Under the pieces are notes generated by a model. That model did not search any database and had not been told where the DNA came from. It saw only the letters and a list, made by a program, of their open reading frames with translations. A stretch of 62,050 nt of DNA, the filler included, from Globobulimina sp. (taxonomy: Eukaryota): assembly GCA_003354225.1 (NCBI GenBank). It is 17 parts of 17 records of this genome, joined end to end, with 100 filler letters (N's around TTAATTAATTAA, not from the genome) between each part and the next. Parts side by side here need not be neighbours in the genome. Positions count along the whole stretch, not along the records: positions 51,194 to 54,746 come from PIVH01002523.1; 16 more parts are not named here. The stretch is one strand, 5' to 3'. How positions within the stretch are numbered: position 1 is the first letter of the stretch; every line of letters starts with the position of its first letter. The translations under genes and the position numbers were made by a program. Of the stretch, positions 27,455 to 61,875 are shown piece by piece.

Positions 27455-28430
27455 GTATGAGATAGATGTCGCTCCAGGAAACGGGATTTACTGATACCAA
27501 TTATAACTATTTTGAATTGTTTTGGGCAATGAGTATGAGATAGATGTCGCTCCTGGAAACACGGAGATATAATGGAGGCCAATTAAAATGAATTGAAATT
27601 TTTTGATTTGTCAGAAAATCATTTGGGCAATATTTAAGAGATGCATGCCGCTTCAGGAAACGGACCAAATAAAACGAATTTGAATTTTTCGGTTTGTCAG
27701 AAAAACATTTGTGAAATGTTTGAGAGATGCATGTCGCTCAGGGAAAAGGGTGATATTACTGATACCAATTAAAATGAATTTGAATTTTTTGGTTTGTCAG
27801 AAAATCATTTGGGCAATGAGTATGAGATAGATGTCGCTCCAGGAAACACGGAGATATAATGGAGGCCAATTAAAACGAATTGAGATTTTTTGGTTGAATT
27901 TTTCTTTTGGTCAGAAAATCATTTGGGCAAACGTGGAAACGTGGTGATTTAATTGAGACCAATTAAAACTAATTTGAATTTTTTGGTTTGTCAGAAAATC
28001 ATTTGGGTAATGAGTATGAGATGCATGTCACTCTAGGAAATCGGGATGATATAATTGAGACCAATTAAAACTAATTTGAATTTTTTGGTTTGTCAGAAAA
28101 TCATTTGGGCAAATGTGTAAGAGATGCATGTCACTCCAGGAAACGGGGTGATATAATTAAGACCAATTAAAACTAATTTGAATTTTTTGGTTTGTCAGAA
28201 AATCATTTGGGCAATGTGTAGGAGATGCATGTCGCTCCGGGCAATGAGTATGAGATAGATGTCGCTCCAGGAAACGGGATGATATTACTGGTATGTCAGA
28301 AAATAATTTGTAAGGCAATATTTAAGAGACGCATGTCGCTCCAGGATACTAATTTTAATTGGTATGTCAGAAAATAATTTGGGCAATATGTAAGAGACGC
28401 ATGTCACTCTAGGAAACGGAGTGATTGAGA
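27455..28430. repeat. ~120-bp satellite array (further copy at ~25720..25820)
   Basis: Recurring GAGATGCATGTCGCTCCAGGAAAC...CCAATTAAAA...TTTGTCAGAAAATCATTTGGGCAA. Confidence 0.9.
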
Positions 28431-28699
28431 CCATTTGGAAAGATCCTTTGCAATCGTTCCACTGCCTTCGAAGTGTTATGTCAGTAACATACAGTACTTG
28501 TTCTGTTCGATCAATCAAAACAAAAATGTGCAGCAGCACACACAGGTGTTGTTGTGCTCACGTGGTATATATATCTTGTCCTATAACCTGCACATCCAAA
28601 ACATCATATCATATCCGTTTATTCTTCATTACTGAAGGTATTGATATACAAAATATGAATAACAACATTATACTACAAAATACAAGAAAATTAATAACG

Positions 28700-29166
28700 T
28701 TCCTATTCAAACGCGATCAAAATTTTATTTAAATTATTATTCGATTATCGATAAAAATCGATTAAAAAACGATTATTTTAGTTATTTTTGAAACTTTAAC
28801 CAAAATGGTTCAAACCTTTTTAGATCGAAAGCTAATAAGGTTGCGAGTCAAACTCGGTCAAAATTTGATTTAAATTAATTGTCGATTATCGACAAAAATC
28901 GATTAAAAATCGATAATTTTAGTTATTTTTGAAAAGTTAACGAAAATGGTTCAAACCTTTTTAGATCGAAAGCTAATACGCTTCCGAGTTAAACGCGATA
29001 AAAATTTGATTTAAATTATTGTTCGATTATCGATAAAAATCGATTAAATATCGATAATTTTAGATATTTTTGATTTGTTAATGATAAACATTGATTCTTT
29101 TTTCCATAGAAAGCTAATAAGGTTCTGAGTCAAACGCGAACAAAATATGATTTAGATTATTGTTTG
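28700..29166. repeat. 141-bp satellite, ~3.3 copies, running off the contig end
   Basis: Unit starts AAACGCGATCAAAATT at ~28709, 28850, 28991 and 29132. Confidence 0.9.
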
Positions 29167-51193: not shown

Positions 51194-52246
51194 AAACATG
51201 GTAACCATTTATATTTCTGGCTTAATCTTTCAACACTATTTCTGCCTGTACATCTTGTATGCGAGCCATCTAAAGAAAATAACGCATCTGGCATTGGAAC
51301 ATTTTTCTTTTTCCAAAGCAAACGTATTTCAGCCATTAAATATGTGGATAAAATCTCAAATGCACTCCATTCGCACACTGAAGAGTTAGCATTGAAAGGA
51401 AAGTTTGATAAATTTCCATATTGGAACAGTTATAGAAATAACAGGTTCCAACTCAGCCATCCTTTAATCCAAGAAAAGTTAGACAATGTTTTGGCAAAAT
51501 TGAATTACAAACACAACAAAGAGATATTAGAGGAGGTTGAATCTCATTTATTAGAGATAAATAAAGTGTATATGGGTGATTTAAAGGTGATTATCGATCA
51601 TGCTTTGGACGAACATCGTAAATGGTGCTGGATTCAGAGTGAGTTTAGTACTCAGAAGAAAGCCCATAAATACACTTTAAACGTAGATTTAGAGAATGAC
51701 GACCAACAAATCATTGACAAGCACATAAAATTAATTTATGGTCGCGAGTACCAATTAGATCAAAAGAGATTATTTTTGCAAAACATTAGCAAAAACATCC
51801 AATTTCATATGCAAAAGAATAATGAAATTTATTTGCGTCCATCGATAGATCCAATTTATATGAATGCCGCAAAAGATTTGATTAGTAATCAAAAGAAAGC
51901 AAATAAAAACATCTCATCTACGAAACATAAAAATATCCAAAATAAAAATCGCAAAAATAAGCCATATAAAAACAATAAAAACACCAAAAATAACAAATCG
52001 TTTTTCACCAAAAACTTTAAATATGGCAAGAACAAAAACGTTAAAAACATTAAAAACAAAAACAAAAAGAAACCAAAGAAGCATTATAGCGATTTAACGG
52101 ATAAACAGAAATTCGGAAATTACAACAAGAATTTCTTAGATTTAGCGCCATCATTAAAGCCATTACAAATTAGATTGGATAGCAACGCTCAGAATATTAT
52201 TAATAACACAATGTCCGACGACGAGTCAATGAATGATAATTTATGA
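51194..52246 (+). CDS. PLE ORF1: helical region plus very basic K/N-rich segment (5' truncated)
   Basis: Frame open from the contig edge to TGA 52244..52246, in the same frame as the RT ORF. Confidence 0.65.
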   Translation, partial: KHGNHLYFWLNLSTLFLPVHLVCEPSKENNASGIGTFFFFQSKRISAIKYVDKISNALHSHTEELALKGKFDKFPYWNSYRNNRFQLSHPLIQEKLDNVLAKLNYKHNKEILEEVESHLLEINKVYMGDLKVIIDHALDEHRKWCWIQSEFSTQKKAHKYTLNVDLENDDQQIIDKHIKLIYGREYQLDQKRLFLQNISKNIQFHMQKNNEIYLRPSIDPIYMNAAKDLISNQKKANKNISSTKHKNIQNKNRKNKPYKNNKNTKNNKSFFTKNFKYGKNKNVKNIKNKNKKKPKKHYSDLTDKQKFGNYNKNFLDLAPSLKPLQIRLDSNAQNIINNTMSDDESMNDNL

Positions 52247-52264
52247 CAGTCCAATCATTTAAGA

Positions 52265-54322
52265 ATGCGCATTTCTGGTCGCTATCGATCAAAAACTCCA
52301 CCACCTCAATCTTCCAATAAATACAAGGAATATAGAAAAAAGAAAAGAGATTTTCCCAAATCTATATTCAATAAAACTGATTTGAAATCGCTTCCGTTCA
52401 TAGTACGTATTATCGGCCATAAAGGACGTAATTATACATTGGATAATCCGTCGATTAATAATTGGTCAAAAAACTTGAAGCGCTCAAAAACCGCTTTCAA
52501 GCAACGTTTATCAAAACATTTTAACAAATTATACAAAAATGATAAACGAGATTCGGAGTTTGAATTGAAAAAAGCATACGATTTTTTAGACATAAATATG
52601 AATCAACACATAAATAATAAGAAACGTAAATGCTTTTTCAATAAAAAATATTACATTTCAAGGCAGAATACAACGAAAGCAGTTCGCGGCATTTTGCGAG
52701 AAATAAAAAAGAACAAATATACCATCATCGAATCGGACAAGAAAATGGGAAGTGTTTATATCGATGTTTGTGTCCTGGACACCGAAGTTCTGAAGTTTTT
52801 GGATGGAAAACAATTCAAAATTGTATATGCATCAGATTTTAGTGTCGCAACCAAAGTCGCTTCGTTTGTCAGAGATATTACATTCAAACATATTAATTAT
52901 TTCCGTGAGATGTGGCAAAATGATCCGATTTATAGAGATTGGCAAAGAATTGATTCGGACGACAAAATATTGCCTCTCCCTAAGATTAGACCGATGATGA
53001 AATTGCACAAAGTCGGCTGGCGATTTATTTTCAATCCCGGCAATTTTTACACATTATTCTTGTCAGTGTATACTGGCAAACTTTTAGATGAAATGTTGAT
53101 GCTTTTCCAAGAAAAAAAGCAGCAATATATAGTATTAAACAATTCATTTGAAGTCATTAACAATTATAAAAAGATCAATATTGCAAACCATCCATTTAAT
53201 ATTACAGATAGATACAGTTTTGACTCCGATGTAGTCGCTTTATATGATTCAATGATTTTGGATCAATGTATTGATATTTTGCAGTATATTCAAGACGATC
53301 TAAATTATAATCCTTTCAAATACCATTTTATGATTGATTGCTTATTATTTTTTAAGGATAATACTTACATTAAATACAAAAATTGGACGCGTAGAATGGT
53401 CATTGGCATTGGAACAGGCACATCGCATTCCGGCCCATTAGCAAATTTATGCTTATATGGATATGAAATTAAGAATTTGAATACCTTTCTTTCCTCAATT
53501 CATTACAAGTCTCTTTGCGATATTCCTTTAAGGAAACGGTATATCGACGATCTTAAAACTATCATCGATATCGATTCTGAACAATTTGGCGATGAAATTG
53601 AGAAATTATGCTATTTAGAACATATATCCATTGCATTAAATGATATCTATCCTAAAAACCTTGTATTAAAAACAAAATATGCGAAAAGATCTATATTTTT
53701 GGACATGTATACAATTATTTGTCATCAAACCAATACAATCGTATCATTTATGCATGAAAAACCATTAAATTTACATATTAATTTACATTTTAATTCAAAT
53801 AATCCATTCAATCAAAAAGAATGTATATTCTTTTCTTTTCTGTTTAGATCCATTTGTTTGAATGATAGCGAATTAAAACACAAATCGTTTACAAAGAAAT
53901 TGATAAAAAGAATGTTAAACAGAGATTTTCCGGCCGTCGTAATTAGGAAAATACTCAAAAACCGTAAACTACCACAATATATTAATCGTGATAAATATTT
54001 GGAAAAATTAGAAAGTAATCGATTACAGAAATATTATCGGAATTTTTTGAAAATATACGATGAAAATATGTGGGGCCAAGATAAATTTTTAGAAGATGAA
54101 ATCTGGCAAAATTTAATCGAAAAATATTCAGAAGAAACGGACGACGATGACATTAAAACGATTTATTTCAAGAAAGTGTATCAACAGTTATTCGATGATG
54201 ATAATCGATTTAGAGATATTTTAAAACAATTTAAAAGTATATTACCTATTGATTTTGCAGAAAAGATTAAGCTCTCTATTTGCAATAAAACAGAAGATAA
54301 ACTCATGAGATATCTAAATTAA
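52265..54322 (+). CDS. Penelope-type reverse transcriptase
   Basis: ESDKKMG, KLHK..WRFI, DVVALYDSM, GIGTGTSHSGPLANL, RYIDD, IFLDM and thumb motif HEKP...LHFNSNNP...NRDFP. Confidence 0.88.
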   Translation: MRISGRYRSKTPPPQSSNKYKEYRKKKRDFPKSIFNKTDLKSLPFIVRIIGHKGRNYTLDNPSINNWSKNLKRSKTAFKQRLSKHFNKLYKNDKRDSEFELKKAYDFLDINMNQHINNKKRKCFFNKKYYISRQNTTKAVRGILREIKKNKYTIIESDKKMGSVYIDVCVLDTEVLKFLDGKQFKIVYASDFSVATKVASFVRDITFKHINYFREMWQNDPIYRDWQRIDSDDKILPLPKIRPMMKLHKVGWRFIFNPGNFYTLFLSVYTGKLLDEMLMLFQEKKQQYIVLNNSFEVINNYKKINIANHPFNITDRYSFDSDVVALYDSMILDQCIDILQYIQDDLNYNPFKYHFMIDCLLFFKDNTYIKYKNWTRRMVIGIGTGTSHSGPLANLCLYGYEIKNLNTFLSSIHYKSLCDIPLRKRYIDDLKTIIDIDSEQFGDEIEKLCYLEHISIALNDIYPKNLVLKTKYAKRSIFLDMYTIICHQTNTIVSFMHEKPLNLHINLHFNSNNPFNQKECIFFSFLFRSICLNDSELKHKSFTKKLIKRMLNRDFPAVVIRKILKNRKLPQYINRDKYLEKLESNRLQKYYRNFLKIYDENMWGQDKFLEDEIWQNLIEKYSEETDDDDIKTIYFKKVYQQLFDDDNRFRDILKQFKSILPIDFAEKIKLSICNKTEDKLMRYLN

Positions 54323-54612
54323 TTCTTTTTAGTTTGTTTTATATACTTTTTACCTTATTTAATTTTTCATTTCTTTCTATTTATAGATACAATGTAAATT
54401 CGCTATTTGTATACTTTGCATTGACAATGAAAAAGTTCACATTCGTTTTACATACTTTTTTATGACTTATTTGCTTTTGTTTGTTTGGTGTTTTTTTGAA
54501 ATTATGTTACCGTTTGTGTTTTTATTTTTGTTTCACAGCAAGTTGTGAAAGACTCAAAGTTTTTTTGAATTTTTATCAAGAAACTTTAAGTATTTACCTT
54601 TCACCTTATTTT

Positions 54613-54660
54613 TTAAAGTGTGAATCAGTCCTTGTTTGGACGAAACTAGTCACTAATTAA
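54613..54660 (+). ncRNA. Minimal type I hammerhead ribozyme, variant core
   Basis: TTAA-AGT [GTGAATCA] GTCC TTGTTT GGAC GAAA CTAG TC ACT-aa-TTAA: stem II, GAAA, palindromic CTAG stem III and a GUC cleavage triplet. Confidence 0.65.
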
Positions 54661-54846
54661 TATCAACAATTGTTTTATCATTTCGTTGAAGAGTGAATCT
54701 CGTCTCTAAATATAGTTCACTCTATCCCTTTAGACTCACGTATCCCNNNNNNNNNNNNNNNNNNNNNNNNNNNNNNNNNNNNNNNNNNNNTTAATTAATT
54801 AANNNNNNNNNNNNNNNNNNNNNNNNNNNNNNNNNNNNNNNNNNNN

Positions 54847-54970
54847 GGCTGCCACGAGACGCGGGGCAAGGCGCCCAACGCGGTCCCAAAGCCGTAATCG
54901 CCGCGCTCCGCCGAATAACGGGCAACATCGGAGATCGTCAATCCAACCTGGGCAAGCTCGTCCGGATACA
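54847..54970 (-). other. GC-rich bacterial-like coding fragment fused to eukaryotic DNA
   Basis: GC is abruptly much higher than in the flanking DNA. Open frame YPDELAQVGLTISDVARYSAERGDYGFGTALGALPRVSWQ. Confidence 0.6.
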
Positions 54971-54974
54971 ACTT

Positions 54975-56203
54975 TACCTGGTTTGGTGTGTGTACGGACT
55001 TTTTTGGTATATTCTTCGCAATCTCCTGGGCATTTTACAGAACAGATTCATCACAGAATGCAAACCTTACTGTCATTGGGCAAATATATTTGTATAAAAT
55101 ACTCTGTGGATCGTTACCCATCGCTGTATTCAGTTCAATATTCATGTATTTGTATGTTGCTCCAAGTTTAGAAACAGTTCATTATGTTTGACTGAATATA
55201 TATCCTTCCTTCCACTTAAATTAATACAGAATGGTTTGGAAAAGTAACCGAAATCACTGAGTCTGGCTGTAGTATATGTGCAGTTACATTCGCTTTGGTT
55301 ATGAGCATATTTGGATTTATTGTCGGTTGTTGTGTATTATGTTTATTATCTGAAATATTTAATTTTACATTGATTGCGCTATTTATTTATTATTTTGGAA
55401 CAACCCGTTTTTCAAAATATGAGCAAATTGAAGAGAATAAAATATTACAGGAAGTTATACAATTTATTTCTGATGGAAGATCTGATGAAGATAAAGCGTT
55501 GCGGGTTTTTGCTATCAACACTGAATATTATCATTCATTTTCAACACTGGGTAAACATCGTAAATTGCTACGATTTAAGTTTGCCGCTTGGATTGATACA
55601 ATTGAAGAAAATGAATCATTGGAATTAATAACTTGGGAAAATATGAGATTGAATGCAATGAACGAAGCACAACAAAGATATGCCAATTTTTGGAATCATA
55701 TATTGTTAAAAACGATGTTTGAACAATTGGATGAAGAAATAACCACAGCATCAAATTCCAATAATTGTATGTCTGCTTTTATACGATTAGGTGGATATAT
55801 TATGCTCTATTTCTTATTGCCATTGTATTTGCTGTCGAAAATTGTAACACTTTTATATCCGTTGATAATAACTGGTGTTGTATCTATTGCTGCTTTTGGA
55901 TGGGCTGAAATACCGATGTTTCAATTTATTATGTTAATAACCTATGTATTTATGATTGTGATTGTTATAACATTTGGTATTCCAACATTGCGATTATTGT
56001 TTTGGTTATGGCATATTGCCCCAGGCGATGAACATATTATTATGCAAAGAATACGAATGAAAAAAGTTGAAAATTATTATGATAAATTAATGTTAACACC
56101 ATTCATTGAGAAATTGGTGATCACAACATTTGGACAAGACGTTGGTGATATCATTATGGACTACTATAAAAACATTCGTTTGGAAAGAAATTCAAAGAAA
56201 TGA
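54975..56203 (+). CDS. Hypothetical multi-pass membrane protein, 5' truncated, one intron
   Basis: Hydrophobic ORFs 54988..55191 and 55295..56203 flank an intron-like gap at ~55187..55229. C-terminal TFGQDVGDIIMDY. Confidence 0.6.
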
Positions 56204-60573: not shown

Positions 60574-61875
60574 ATGAATACAGATCCTAATACAAACAGA
60601 TCTGTGTATTGTTGTTATTTATTGCGATGTTTGAATCCTAAATGGAATAATGCGCAATATATCGGTTTTACAAATAATCCGCCACGAAGAATACGTCAAC
60701 ATAATGGAGAGTTATCTAATGGCGCAAAGAAAACAAAACGAAAACGGCCATGGGAAATGGTACTATTTATTTATGGATTTCCGACAAAACACAGTGCATT
60801 GCAATTTGAATGGGCGTGGCAAAAACCTAAATATTCACGTTTGGTTAAACATTATTTGACCAAAAAAACCTATAAAGGTGGCGTCAATGGCAAAATACAA
60901 ATTTTATTTGAAATGATACAAATGTTACCATTCAAGAATTATCCATTAAATATAAATTGGACAAATAACAATCATTATAATCAATATTCTAAATTAATAA
61001 ACATTGGCAATATACCACCACATATTTACATACACACTCGGCCACTGAACAAATTGTATTATTTTCATAAAAAAAAATATAAAAAAAATAACAAAAATAA
61101 AAACGATATTAATATCAATATTGATAATGATAATGATCATAAAAGTGCCGATTTATTAAATTATTATCAACAAAATATAAAATATTGCCATCCGCCAGTT
61201 ATTTTTTGTCATTGTTGCCATCAAAAAGAAGAATTTGGTCATTTAAAAAACTTAAATCAATCATCATTATTGTTACAATATGACAATAAATTTACAAAAT
61301 GTCCAAATAAAAAATGTAAAGCATATTTACATTTATTGTGTTTAACAAAACAAGCTTTAAATAAAAGCATTAAAGCATACAAAAACAATGTTGATATAAA
61401 TATACAAAATGGAAATTCAAAAAGAAATAAAATGGTTGATATTGATTCAAAAATTGTTGGAATTTCAAAAAAATTAAGAATTATTCCAAATAATGTAACA
61501 TGCCCAAAATGTAAAAATATATGTAAATGGCCAGAATATATACGAAATACCTTAAGATTTATTGATATCACAATTGATGATGAGAGCGAAGAAGAGGATC
61601 ATGATTTAGATGACGAGGATATGGAAGAAGATGAAGAGAACATTCACTATGATCATAATGCAAACAATAAAAATCACAATAAAGTGATTCCGGGCGTCGG
61701 TTATTGTCACGCAAACAATCAAAATAAACAGAAAACAAATAACAATCATGATTATGACTCAACGTCATCGGTCAGTGAGGTGGATGAGGATGAGGTGGAT
61801 GAGGAAAGTGACGACGATGATGATATTGGAATGAGTTTAAAAGATCGTTTGAAACAAAGAGGAATTAATTGTTAA
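60574..61875 (+). CDS. SLX1: Structure-specific endonuclease SLX1
   Basis: GIY-YIG domain CYLL..YIGFTNNPPRRIRQHNG..GAKKT..RPWEMVL..GFP...ALQFEWAWQ and a C-terminal RING/PHD-like finger (C..C..HLLCL..CPKC..W). Confidence 0.93.
   Translation: MNTDPNTNRSVYCCYLLRCLNPKWNNAQYIGFTNNPPRRIRQHNGELSNGAKKTKRKRPWEMVLFIYGFPTKHSALQFEWAWQKPKYSRLVKHYLTKKTYKGGVNGKIQILFEMIQMLPFKNYPLNINWTNNNHYNQYSKLINIGNIPPHIYIHTRPLNKLYYFHKKKYKKNNKNKNDININIDNDNDHKSADLLNYYQQNIKYCHPPVIFCHCCHQKEEFGHLKNLNQSSLLLQYDNKFTKCPNKKCKAYLHLLCLTKQALNKSIKAYKNNVDINIQNGNSKRNKMVDIDSKIVGISKKLRIIPNNVTCPKCKNICKWPEYIRNTLRFIDITIDDESEEEDHDLDDEDMEEDEENIHYDHNANNKNHNKVIPGVGYCHANNQNKQKTNNNHDYDSTSSVSEVDEDEVDEESDDDDDIGMSLKDRLKQRGINC

Follow-up and report, generated by a model that had tools for sequence, protein, structure and literature searches.

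A retroelement contig with a hammerhead-like motif

The window, meaning the whole stretch of 62,050 nucleotides analysed here (Globobulimina sp., assembly GCA_003354225.1), has a G+C content of about 30% and comprises 17 contigs, each of about 3.55 kb, with linkers of the form N44-TTAATTAATTAA-N44 between them (32 N runs). It represents several molecules, and features across contig joins are not to be read as continuous. A hammerhead-like motif lies on the 3.5-kb contig at 51194-54746 (PIVH01002523.1), which also encodes two open reading frames (ORFs) of a retroelement.

51313..52246, plus strand: ORF1, from translation; frame open back to the contig start, with the stop TGA at 52244-52246
52265..54322, plus strand: ORF2, 685 aa, by profile comparisons a divergent Penelope-like element (PLE)-type RT without an endonuclease domain

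ORF1 and ORF2 share one frame, split by a single TGA plus 18 nt (52244-52264), an arrangement that could reflect stop-codon readthrough, yielding a fusion, or separate initiation at the ATG at 52265. ORF1 matched no Pfam or NCBIfam family, save for a sub-threshold match to HAAS (E 0.055). ORF2 had no Pfam or NCBIfam match of its own, and PDB sequence searches with ORF2 and with its family profile A2 returned 0 matches. Its relatives come from a full HMMER scan, which found 103 at E ≤ 1e-3; a word-index protein search gave 1 match. When 20 of the relatives were scanned, RVT_1 was found at E ≤ 0.01 in 11, six of these above the cut-off, and one of the 20 also carried a C-terminal GIY-YIG domain, while the seven closest relatives gave no match. 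Compared by hhalign with this RT+GIY-YIG protein, profile A2 aligned at 99.1% probability (E 3.9e-19, 243 columns).

Within ORF2, the DK(N/K)xG position reads DKKMG (aa 158-162, 52736-52750), against a family consensus of DKNMG, and YIDD lies at aa 426-429 (53540-53551). Pfam detected no GIY-YIG domain in ORF1 or ORF2, and the ORF2 relatives share a conserved C-terminus, ending at the same point. Judged by these profiles and motifs, ORF2 is a PLE-type RT. Its two closest named relatives belong to a foraminiferan protein set (35% and 32% identity in the alignment), and the others come from ENA, Logan or NCBI contigs of 1.9-3.9 kb. Alignments A1 and A2 offered no conserved stretch for a search of related loci; the matches to the pattern of alignment A3 (591 in viral, 592 in metagenome and 421 in genome contigs) encoded no relative, and searches of the window by tblastn and blastn revealed no further copies of the element.

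At the 5' end of the contig, depth in run X1 is 1401 over 51194-51312, against 10.7-131 in all later bins, and contigs diverge at 51312. These first 119 nt (51194-51312) are another high-copy repeat, with a junction at 51312; either this copy of the element has lost its 5' part or the contig is a chimera at that point. At the 3' end, the contig stops 95 nt past the motif. Its final 24 nt include two TATCCC hexamers (54723-54728 and 54741-54746), 70-95 nt past the motif; a telomeric-repeat array was not found in the window.

The remaining contigs carry eukaryotic genes, including those for GH31, PP4R3, ankyrin/EF-hand proteins and an SLX1-like GIY-YIG protein. The last of these, a 433-aa ORF at 60574-61875 (+), carries GIY-YIG at its N-terminus (61.5 bits) and also matches the SLX1 C-terminal domain, just under the cut-off (25.6 bits). 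Its assignment to a PLE with permuted domains was rejected on the grounds of that SLX1 C-terminal match and the lack of an RT; from its domains, the product is a eukaryotic SLX1-like structure-specific nuclease, outside any retroelement. The next contig after that of the motif opens with about 130 nt of G+C-rich DNA (54847-54980) before a sharp change to AT-rich DNA; this start may have arisen through chimerism at the contig end or through insertion of foreign DNA. Two satellite-like tandem arrays were also observed, at 27663-28238 (period 102, 5.8 copies) and 28685-29164 (period 141, 3.4 copies).

Anatomy of the motif and its variant box

The motif begins 290 nt after the ORF2 stop. Positions 54613-54660 (+) read, in order, TTAAAGT, GTGAATCA, GTCC TTGTTT GGAC, GAAA, CTAG, TC and ACTAATTAA, and can be divided as follows.

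54600..54624, plus strand: competing hairpin, 54600-54607 with 54616-54624, from the predicted fold; sequesters G3-A7 of the box
54617..54619, plus strand: helix I, 5' strand AGU, from sequence; pairs with 54652-54654, three contiguous pairs only
54620..54627, plus strand: variant catalytic box GUGAAUCA, which replaces CUGANGA; read as G3 U4 G5 A6 A7 +U C8 A9
54628..54641, plus strand: helix II hairpin GUCC-UUGUUU-GGAC, with the G10.1-C11.1 pair; from sequence, fold and sister contigs
54642..54645, plus strand: GAAA box (G12 A13 A14 A15.1), from sequence; invariant in alignment A4
54645..54650, plus strand: palindrome ACUAGU (A15.1 to U16.1), from sequence
54651..54651, plus strand: C17, with the scissile bond predicted at 54651/54652 from its position in the motif
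54652..54654, plus strand: helix I, 3' strand ACU, from sequence

Stem II, GAAA, CTAG and the GUC site had all been named in an earlier note on this DNA, and each lies where that note placed it, with GUC ending at C54651. The GAAA box (54642-54645) directly follows helix II, which opens with G10.1-C11.1. The GUCC/GGAC stem is formed in the minimum-energy fold and is the same as in five canonical loci (described below) and in the printed Rfam RF00163 consensus. The A15.1-U16.1 pair and the GUC triplet (H17 = C) are present as ACUAGU-C at 54645-54651. The palindrome ACUAGU closes no hairpin; on the dimer model of PMC4209133, two copies can pair through it as a helix III of 6 bp.

Hammerhead cores are nearly invariant. 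The box GUGAAUCA departs from the CUGANGA consensus: in the best parse, U4, G5, A6 and A9 are kept, with G at 3, C at 8 and one extra base. It aligns under CCUGAUGA or CCUGAAGA of the five canonical loci, and a gap-free alignment with them gives mismatches at 4 of 7 positions. A parse that places the extra base between 9 and 10.1, leaving a G3-U8 wobble and C at 9, was rejected since A9 is lost; the canonical cousins, which have no such base, also argue against it.

Beyond the three pairs of helix I, the outer TTAA/TTAA pairing requires a 2-nt bulge, the predicted folds favour other pairings, and T54613 is A in all three sister contigs that cover the site. For 54600-54670 as a single strand, the minimum-energy and centroid fold (-11.2 kcal/mol, z = -1.5) prefers the competing hairpin, and in the predicted 51-nt fold C54651 pairs with G54620, within an AGUG/CACU helix. 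Dimer cofolds gave no useful separation of the window motif from the canonical loci.

Specificity of the motif and its canonical relatives

The pattern A-GUCC-N6-GGAC-GAAA-CUAG-UC specifies 19 bases. Searched as AGTCC-N6-GGACGAAACTAGTC with at most one mismatch, it has one match in the window and none in 100 dinucleotide shuffles. With a loop of 4-8 nt, the 19-base pattern occurs at two loci in genome contigs (596 Gb, prokaryotic), neither of which has a hammerhead box, and at 13 loci in metagenome contigs. A loose scan of the window, for any 4-bp stem with GAAA and a box within three edits, returned 93 sites, 17 of them within two edits, so box resemblance by itself carries no weight. The weight rests on the exact match of stem II, GAAA and helix III, together with the context. 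The sole CTGAAGA on the contig (51378) has neither helix II nor GAAA after it.

No Rfam hammerhead was found in the window at the gathering score, or on the 3.5-kb contig at E ≤ 10 (RF00163 and its clan). In E-value mode, the five canonical cousins scored 19.7-31.4 bits against RF00163 or RF00008, with none reaching the gathering score of 34. This lack of an Rfam match, and the 93 sites of the loose scan, would suit a chance resemblance in AT-rich DNA; against such an origin, the exact 19-base pattern is as rare as the shuffles and the genome contigs indicate, a PLE-type RT ends shortly before the motif, and the arrangement is common to the canonical cousins. We regard chance as extremely improbable.

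Seven of the 13 metagenome loci, five of them distinct (L002 = L010 = L011, L004, L005, L009 and L013), have a canonical CUGAUGA or CUGAAGA box, with CCUGAUGA or CCUGAAGA directly 5' of the 19-base pattern and, downstream of that pattern, a short helix I. The ACUAGU hexamer is present in all seven. The other six (L001, L003, L006 = L008 = L012 and L007) are without a canonical box. The variant box was found at 0/13 metagenome loci and 0/2 genome loci, and had no matches in viral contigs.

Two of the canonical loci are informative for their context. L002 (hammerhead at 1650-1680) and L004 (1590-1610) encode RT ORFs without an endonuclease, whose stops precede the hammerhead by 380 and 680 nt, respectively. 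These ORFs match ORF2 by tblastn (E 3e-7 and 0.026) and RVT_1 at 31.9 and 17 bits. CCCTAA repeats, CCCTAACCCTAACCC or AACCCTAACCCT, follow 150 or 70 nt after the hammerhead. The distance of these telomere-complement repeats from the motif is comparable to that of TATCCC in the window. In L005 (1-1760, 27% G+C), the hammerhead lies 130 nt before a two-ORF unit, the second ORF of which has DKNLG. The two L005 ORFs overlap in different frames, whereas ORF1 and ORF2 of the window are in one frame.

Because the cousins share stem II, GAAA and ACUAGU-C, and two of them also follow endonuclease-less RT ORFs and precede CCCTAA repeats, the motif is, as far as sequence can tell, a homologue of the minimal type I hammerheads, in an endonuclease-less, EN(-), PLE of a microbial eukaryote. 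The earlier note had proposed a minimal type I hammerhead of the PLE kind, and the nearby PLE-type RT ORF and the stem II and ACUAGU shared with the canonical cousins bear this out. Minimal type I hammerheads have been described in the flanking repeats of PLEs by Cervera & de la Pena (2014; PMC4209133), where helix III is replaced by a palindrome, a dimeric active form is proposed and in vitro activity is low.

Sister copies and conservation of the box

Run X1 contains 90% of the contig's sampled words, with no RNA run listed for the stretch, and 208 of its contigs align to the contig at a likeness of at least 80% (46 at ≥99%, 24 at 95-99%, 47 at 90-95% and 91 below 90%); the element family is therefore multicopy. 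The motif itself is covered by 3-4 sister contigs. The sister substitutions considered are the best 40 of 687, which leaves room for a minor contig with another box. Those listed near the motif lie at 54609, 54613, 54634, 54636, 54662, 54679 and 54716, and the listed indels at 54524-54550, 54596, 54662, 54664 and 54679.

None of the listed sister differences falls in the box, stems, GAAA or CUAGUC. Loop II varies (54634 G>T and 54636 T>G), and the changes at 54609 and 54613 sit in the loop of the competing hairpin. The earlier note had called for a check of other copies, and had taken sister copies with canonical CUGANGA as the sign that this one had decayed; among the listed differences, from 3-4 contigs, no such copy appeared. 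That 0/15 listed differences fall in the 26 constrained bases of 193 nt (P = 0.11) is compatible with selection, but as a weak test is not evidence for it.

The coding regions do carry a signal of selection. In ORF2, synonymous changes account for 16 of the 24 sister differences in the list, where 19% would be expected (P = 3e-7). The proteins therefore still mattered as the lineages drew apart, and these lineages carried the box GUGAAUCA throughout. In ORF1, six of nine listed differences are synonymous.

These comparisons bear on whether the box is the private decay of a single copy, or an assembly error, with working copies carrying CUGANGA. Copies of retroelements do decay, and with the best 40 of 687 differences listed, minor contigs could vary in the box. 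However, the three contigs that cover 54613 all differ from the window there, which makes them other copies, and the list has differences carried by contigs of equal depth (37.6-41.3 of about 50-55) at 54609, 54634, 54636 and 54662, with none in the box. We consider private decay very improbable: as the sister contigs have no listed box change, GUGAAUCA is not one copy's own loss. The analysis thus establishes hammerhead homology and the element context, with a box that is family-wide among the listed differences.

Predicted activity of the variant core

Published work on altered cores is of direct relevance. In the hammerhead of the PAc element, a PLE, C3G and G8C singly abolish cleavage and the double mutant restores it in part; cleavage there required protein, insertion in vitro was unaffected by hammerhead mutants, and the PLE RT acts on the 3' part of its own RNA (PMC11167929). 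A natural insertion after A6 leaves low, slow activity, attributed to a lost backbone contact (PMC3088659), and U3-A8 covariation occurs naturally in PLE and other hammerheads (PMC4209133, PMC3088659). For a G3-C8 variant, G17 was reported, as data not shown, to be more active than C17, in line with a 3-17 pairing trap (PMC3884650). The claim of the earlier note that the G3-C8 double swap rescues activity thus holds for partial restoration and not for full rescue, the published work pointing to low activity.

For a natural G3-C8 hammerhead, a literature search with most subscription journals outside its scope gave laboratory variants only. Natural 3-8 covariation other than U3-A8 was not met in the parts of the papers covered; the supplementary alignments of PMC4209133 and PMC8557442 may bear on this.

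One reading, which takes up the idea of the earlier note and which we hold to be rather unlikely, is that of an active compensated variant, in which G3-C8 replaces C3-G8, the extra base is bulged beside position 7 and the RNA cleaves after C54651, probably as a dimer with the element's protein helping. It draws on the partial restoration by the C3G/G8C double mutant, on the natural U3-A8 covariation and on the slow cleavage that survives a natural insertion after A6. In the motif itself, about three edits all fall within the 7-nt box and the other 18-19 conserved bases are intact; random placement of three edits in the box has a probability of roughly (7/25)^3 = 0.02. Such confinement is unexpected for plain decay and counts against a weakened or dead ribozyme, as does the Watson-Crick complementarity of the changed positions 3 and 8. 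Two changed positions form a Watson-Crick pair in about 1 in 3 outcomes, however, so the G3-C8 pairing does not establish selected compensation. The unchanged box among the listed sister differences, with purifying selection on the ORFs and, among those differences, motif change in loop II only, is a weak fit to a maintained element.

Several lines of evidence argue against cleavage. Rescue by the double swap is only partial, and the insertion is a second handicap. A G at 3 can trap C17 (PMC3884650); the site here is C17, and G54620 and C54651 are paired in the predicted fold. Helix I has three pairs, and the predicted competing hairpin lies over G3-A7. The box was seen nowhere else among the metagenome, genome and viral loci, and its constancy in the sister contigs falls short of significance (P = 0.11, above). 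Measurable cleavage by the window motif is, in our assessment, rather doubtful. Less likely still is the fuller proposition that this hammerhead would be without natural precedent in its transposed G3-C8 pair and bulged extra base, kept by an active EN(-) PLE family in a foraminifer-like protist, with dimeric, protein-assisted cleavage after C54651.

We instead lean, with modest confidence, towards a hammerhead that was inherited by a multicopy EN(-) PLE family, whose box changed to GUGAAUCA and whose badly weakened or dead ribozyme is tolerated. The altered box, though possibly paired correctly, probably weakens or kills self-cleavage. Put differently, the core change is family-wide among the listed differences, possibly compensated and probably crippling.

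The sequence of events would be as follows. A minimal type I hammerhead was presumably inherited in the 3' flank of the endonuclease-less retroelement family; a ribozyme at such a site is thought to trim unit-length RNA from longer transcripts, and two copies would pair via the ACUAGU palindrome. The box in the family would then have shifted from CUGANGA to GUGAAUCA, with G at 3, C at 8 and an extra base between A6 and 8, leaving a ribozyme that would be badly weakened or dead. The family would tolerate this, as PLEs can copy themselves without hammerhead cleavage, and any residual cutting would be slow and dependent on the element's protein. Loss of activity appears tolerable because cleavage is dispensable for insertion in vitro (PMC11167929) and because whole clades are without canonical hammerheads, the Naiad and Chlamys elements thriving in this state (PMC8557442).

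A third reading holds that catalysis was lost and that the helix II hairpin and palindrome were retained for RNA dimerisation or for RT recognition of the 3' region. The intact stem II, GAAA and ACUAGU, with the loop alone varying among the listed sister differences, would agree with such repurposing, as would the action of the PLE RT on the 3' part of its own RNA and the protein requirement of the PAc hammerhead (PMC11167929). Copies that share a recent ancestor would, however, be expected to show the same pattern, and we judge repurposing improbable. The weakened or dead but tolerated ribozyme remains our preferred reading.

The variant bears on whether PLEs need their ribozyme, and its G3/C8 form, family-wide among the listed differences, is a natural experiment on core tolerance. 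Were the active form true, the 3-8 pair could flip in nature, and descriptor and covariance searches would overlook a class of working hammerheads. The locus also adds a PLE family without an endonuclease, with foraminiferan proteins as its nearest named relatives.

Comparison with known hammerheads and Penelope-like elements

Among the closest counterparts are the canonical loci from the metagenome contigs, which have an identical A-GUCC...GGAC-GAAA-CUAG-UC. They differ from the window motif in the box, CCUGAUGA or CCUGAAGA, and in a helix I of about 4 bp, and the RTs of L002 and L004 are no more than distantly related to ORF2 (23-26% identity).

With the minimal PLE hammerheads of PMC4209133, the motif shares a type I arrangement, a helix II of 4 bp that includes G10.1-C11.1, GAAA, an open helix III with a palindrome around 15.2-16.2, GUC, a short helix I, a location flanking an RT ORF of the PLE type and a proposed dimeric active form. 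The box sets it apart: CUGANGA there, GUGAAUCA in the window, with U3-A8 as the only natural 3-8 covariation in the parts of that paper considered. In many metazoan minimal hammerheads, helix II is longer and one more base stands between A9 and G10.1 (PMC4209133), whereas the window motif is without that base.

The Athena and Coprina clades consist of an RT only, with a DKG/DKN motif and no endonuclease, and their hammerhead motifs adjoin short reverse-complement telomeric repeats (PMC8557442, PMC13159263). According to these descriptions, the element in the window shares with them an RT that lacks GIY-YIG, DK(N/K)xG ahead of the RT core, an ORF1 further upstream and, close to the 3' end, a hammerhead motif. 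The closest named relatives of ORF2 are foraminiferan, whereas foraminifera are unmentioned in the passages of PMC8557442 and PMC13159263 on Athena and Coprina.

Finally, the transposed 3-8 pair has a laboratory precedent in the C3G/G8C double mutants (PMC11167929, citing Martick & Scott 2006). Those mutants are engineered and have no insertion, whereas the change in the window is natural, family-wide among the listed differences and accompanied by an extra base.
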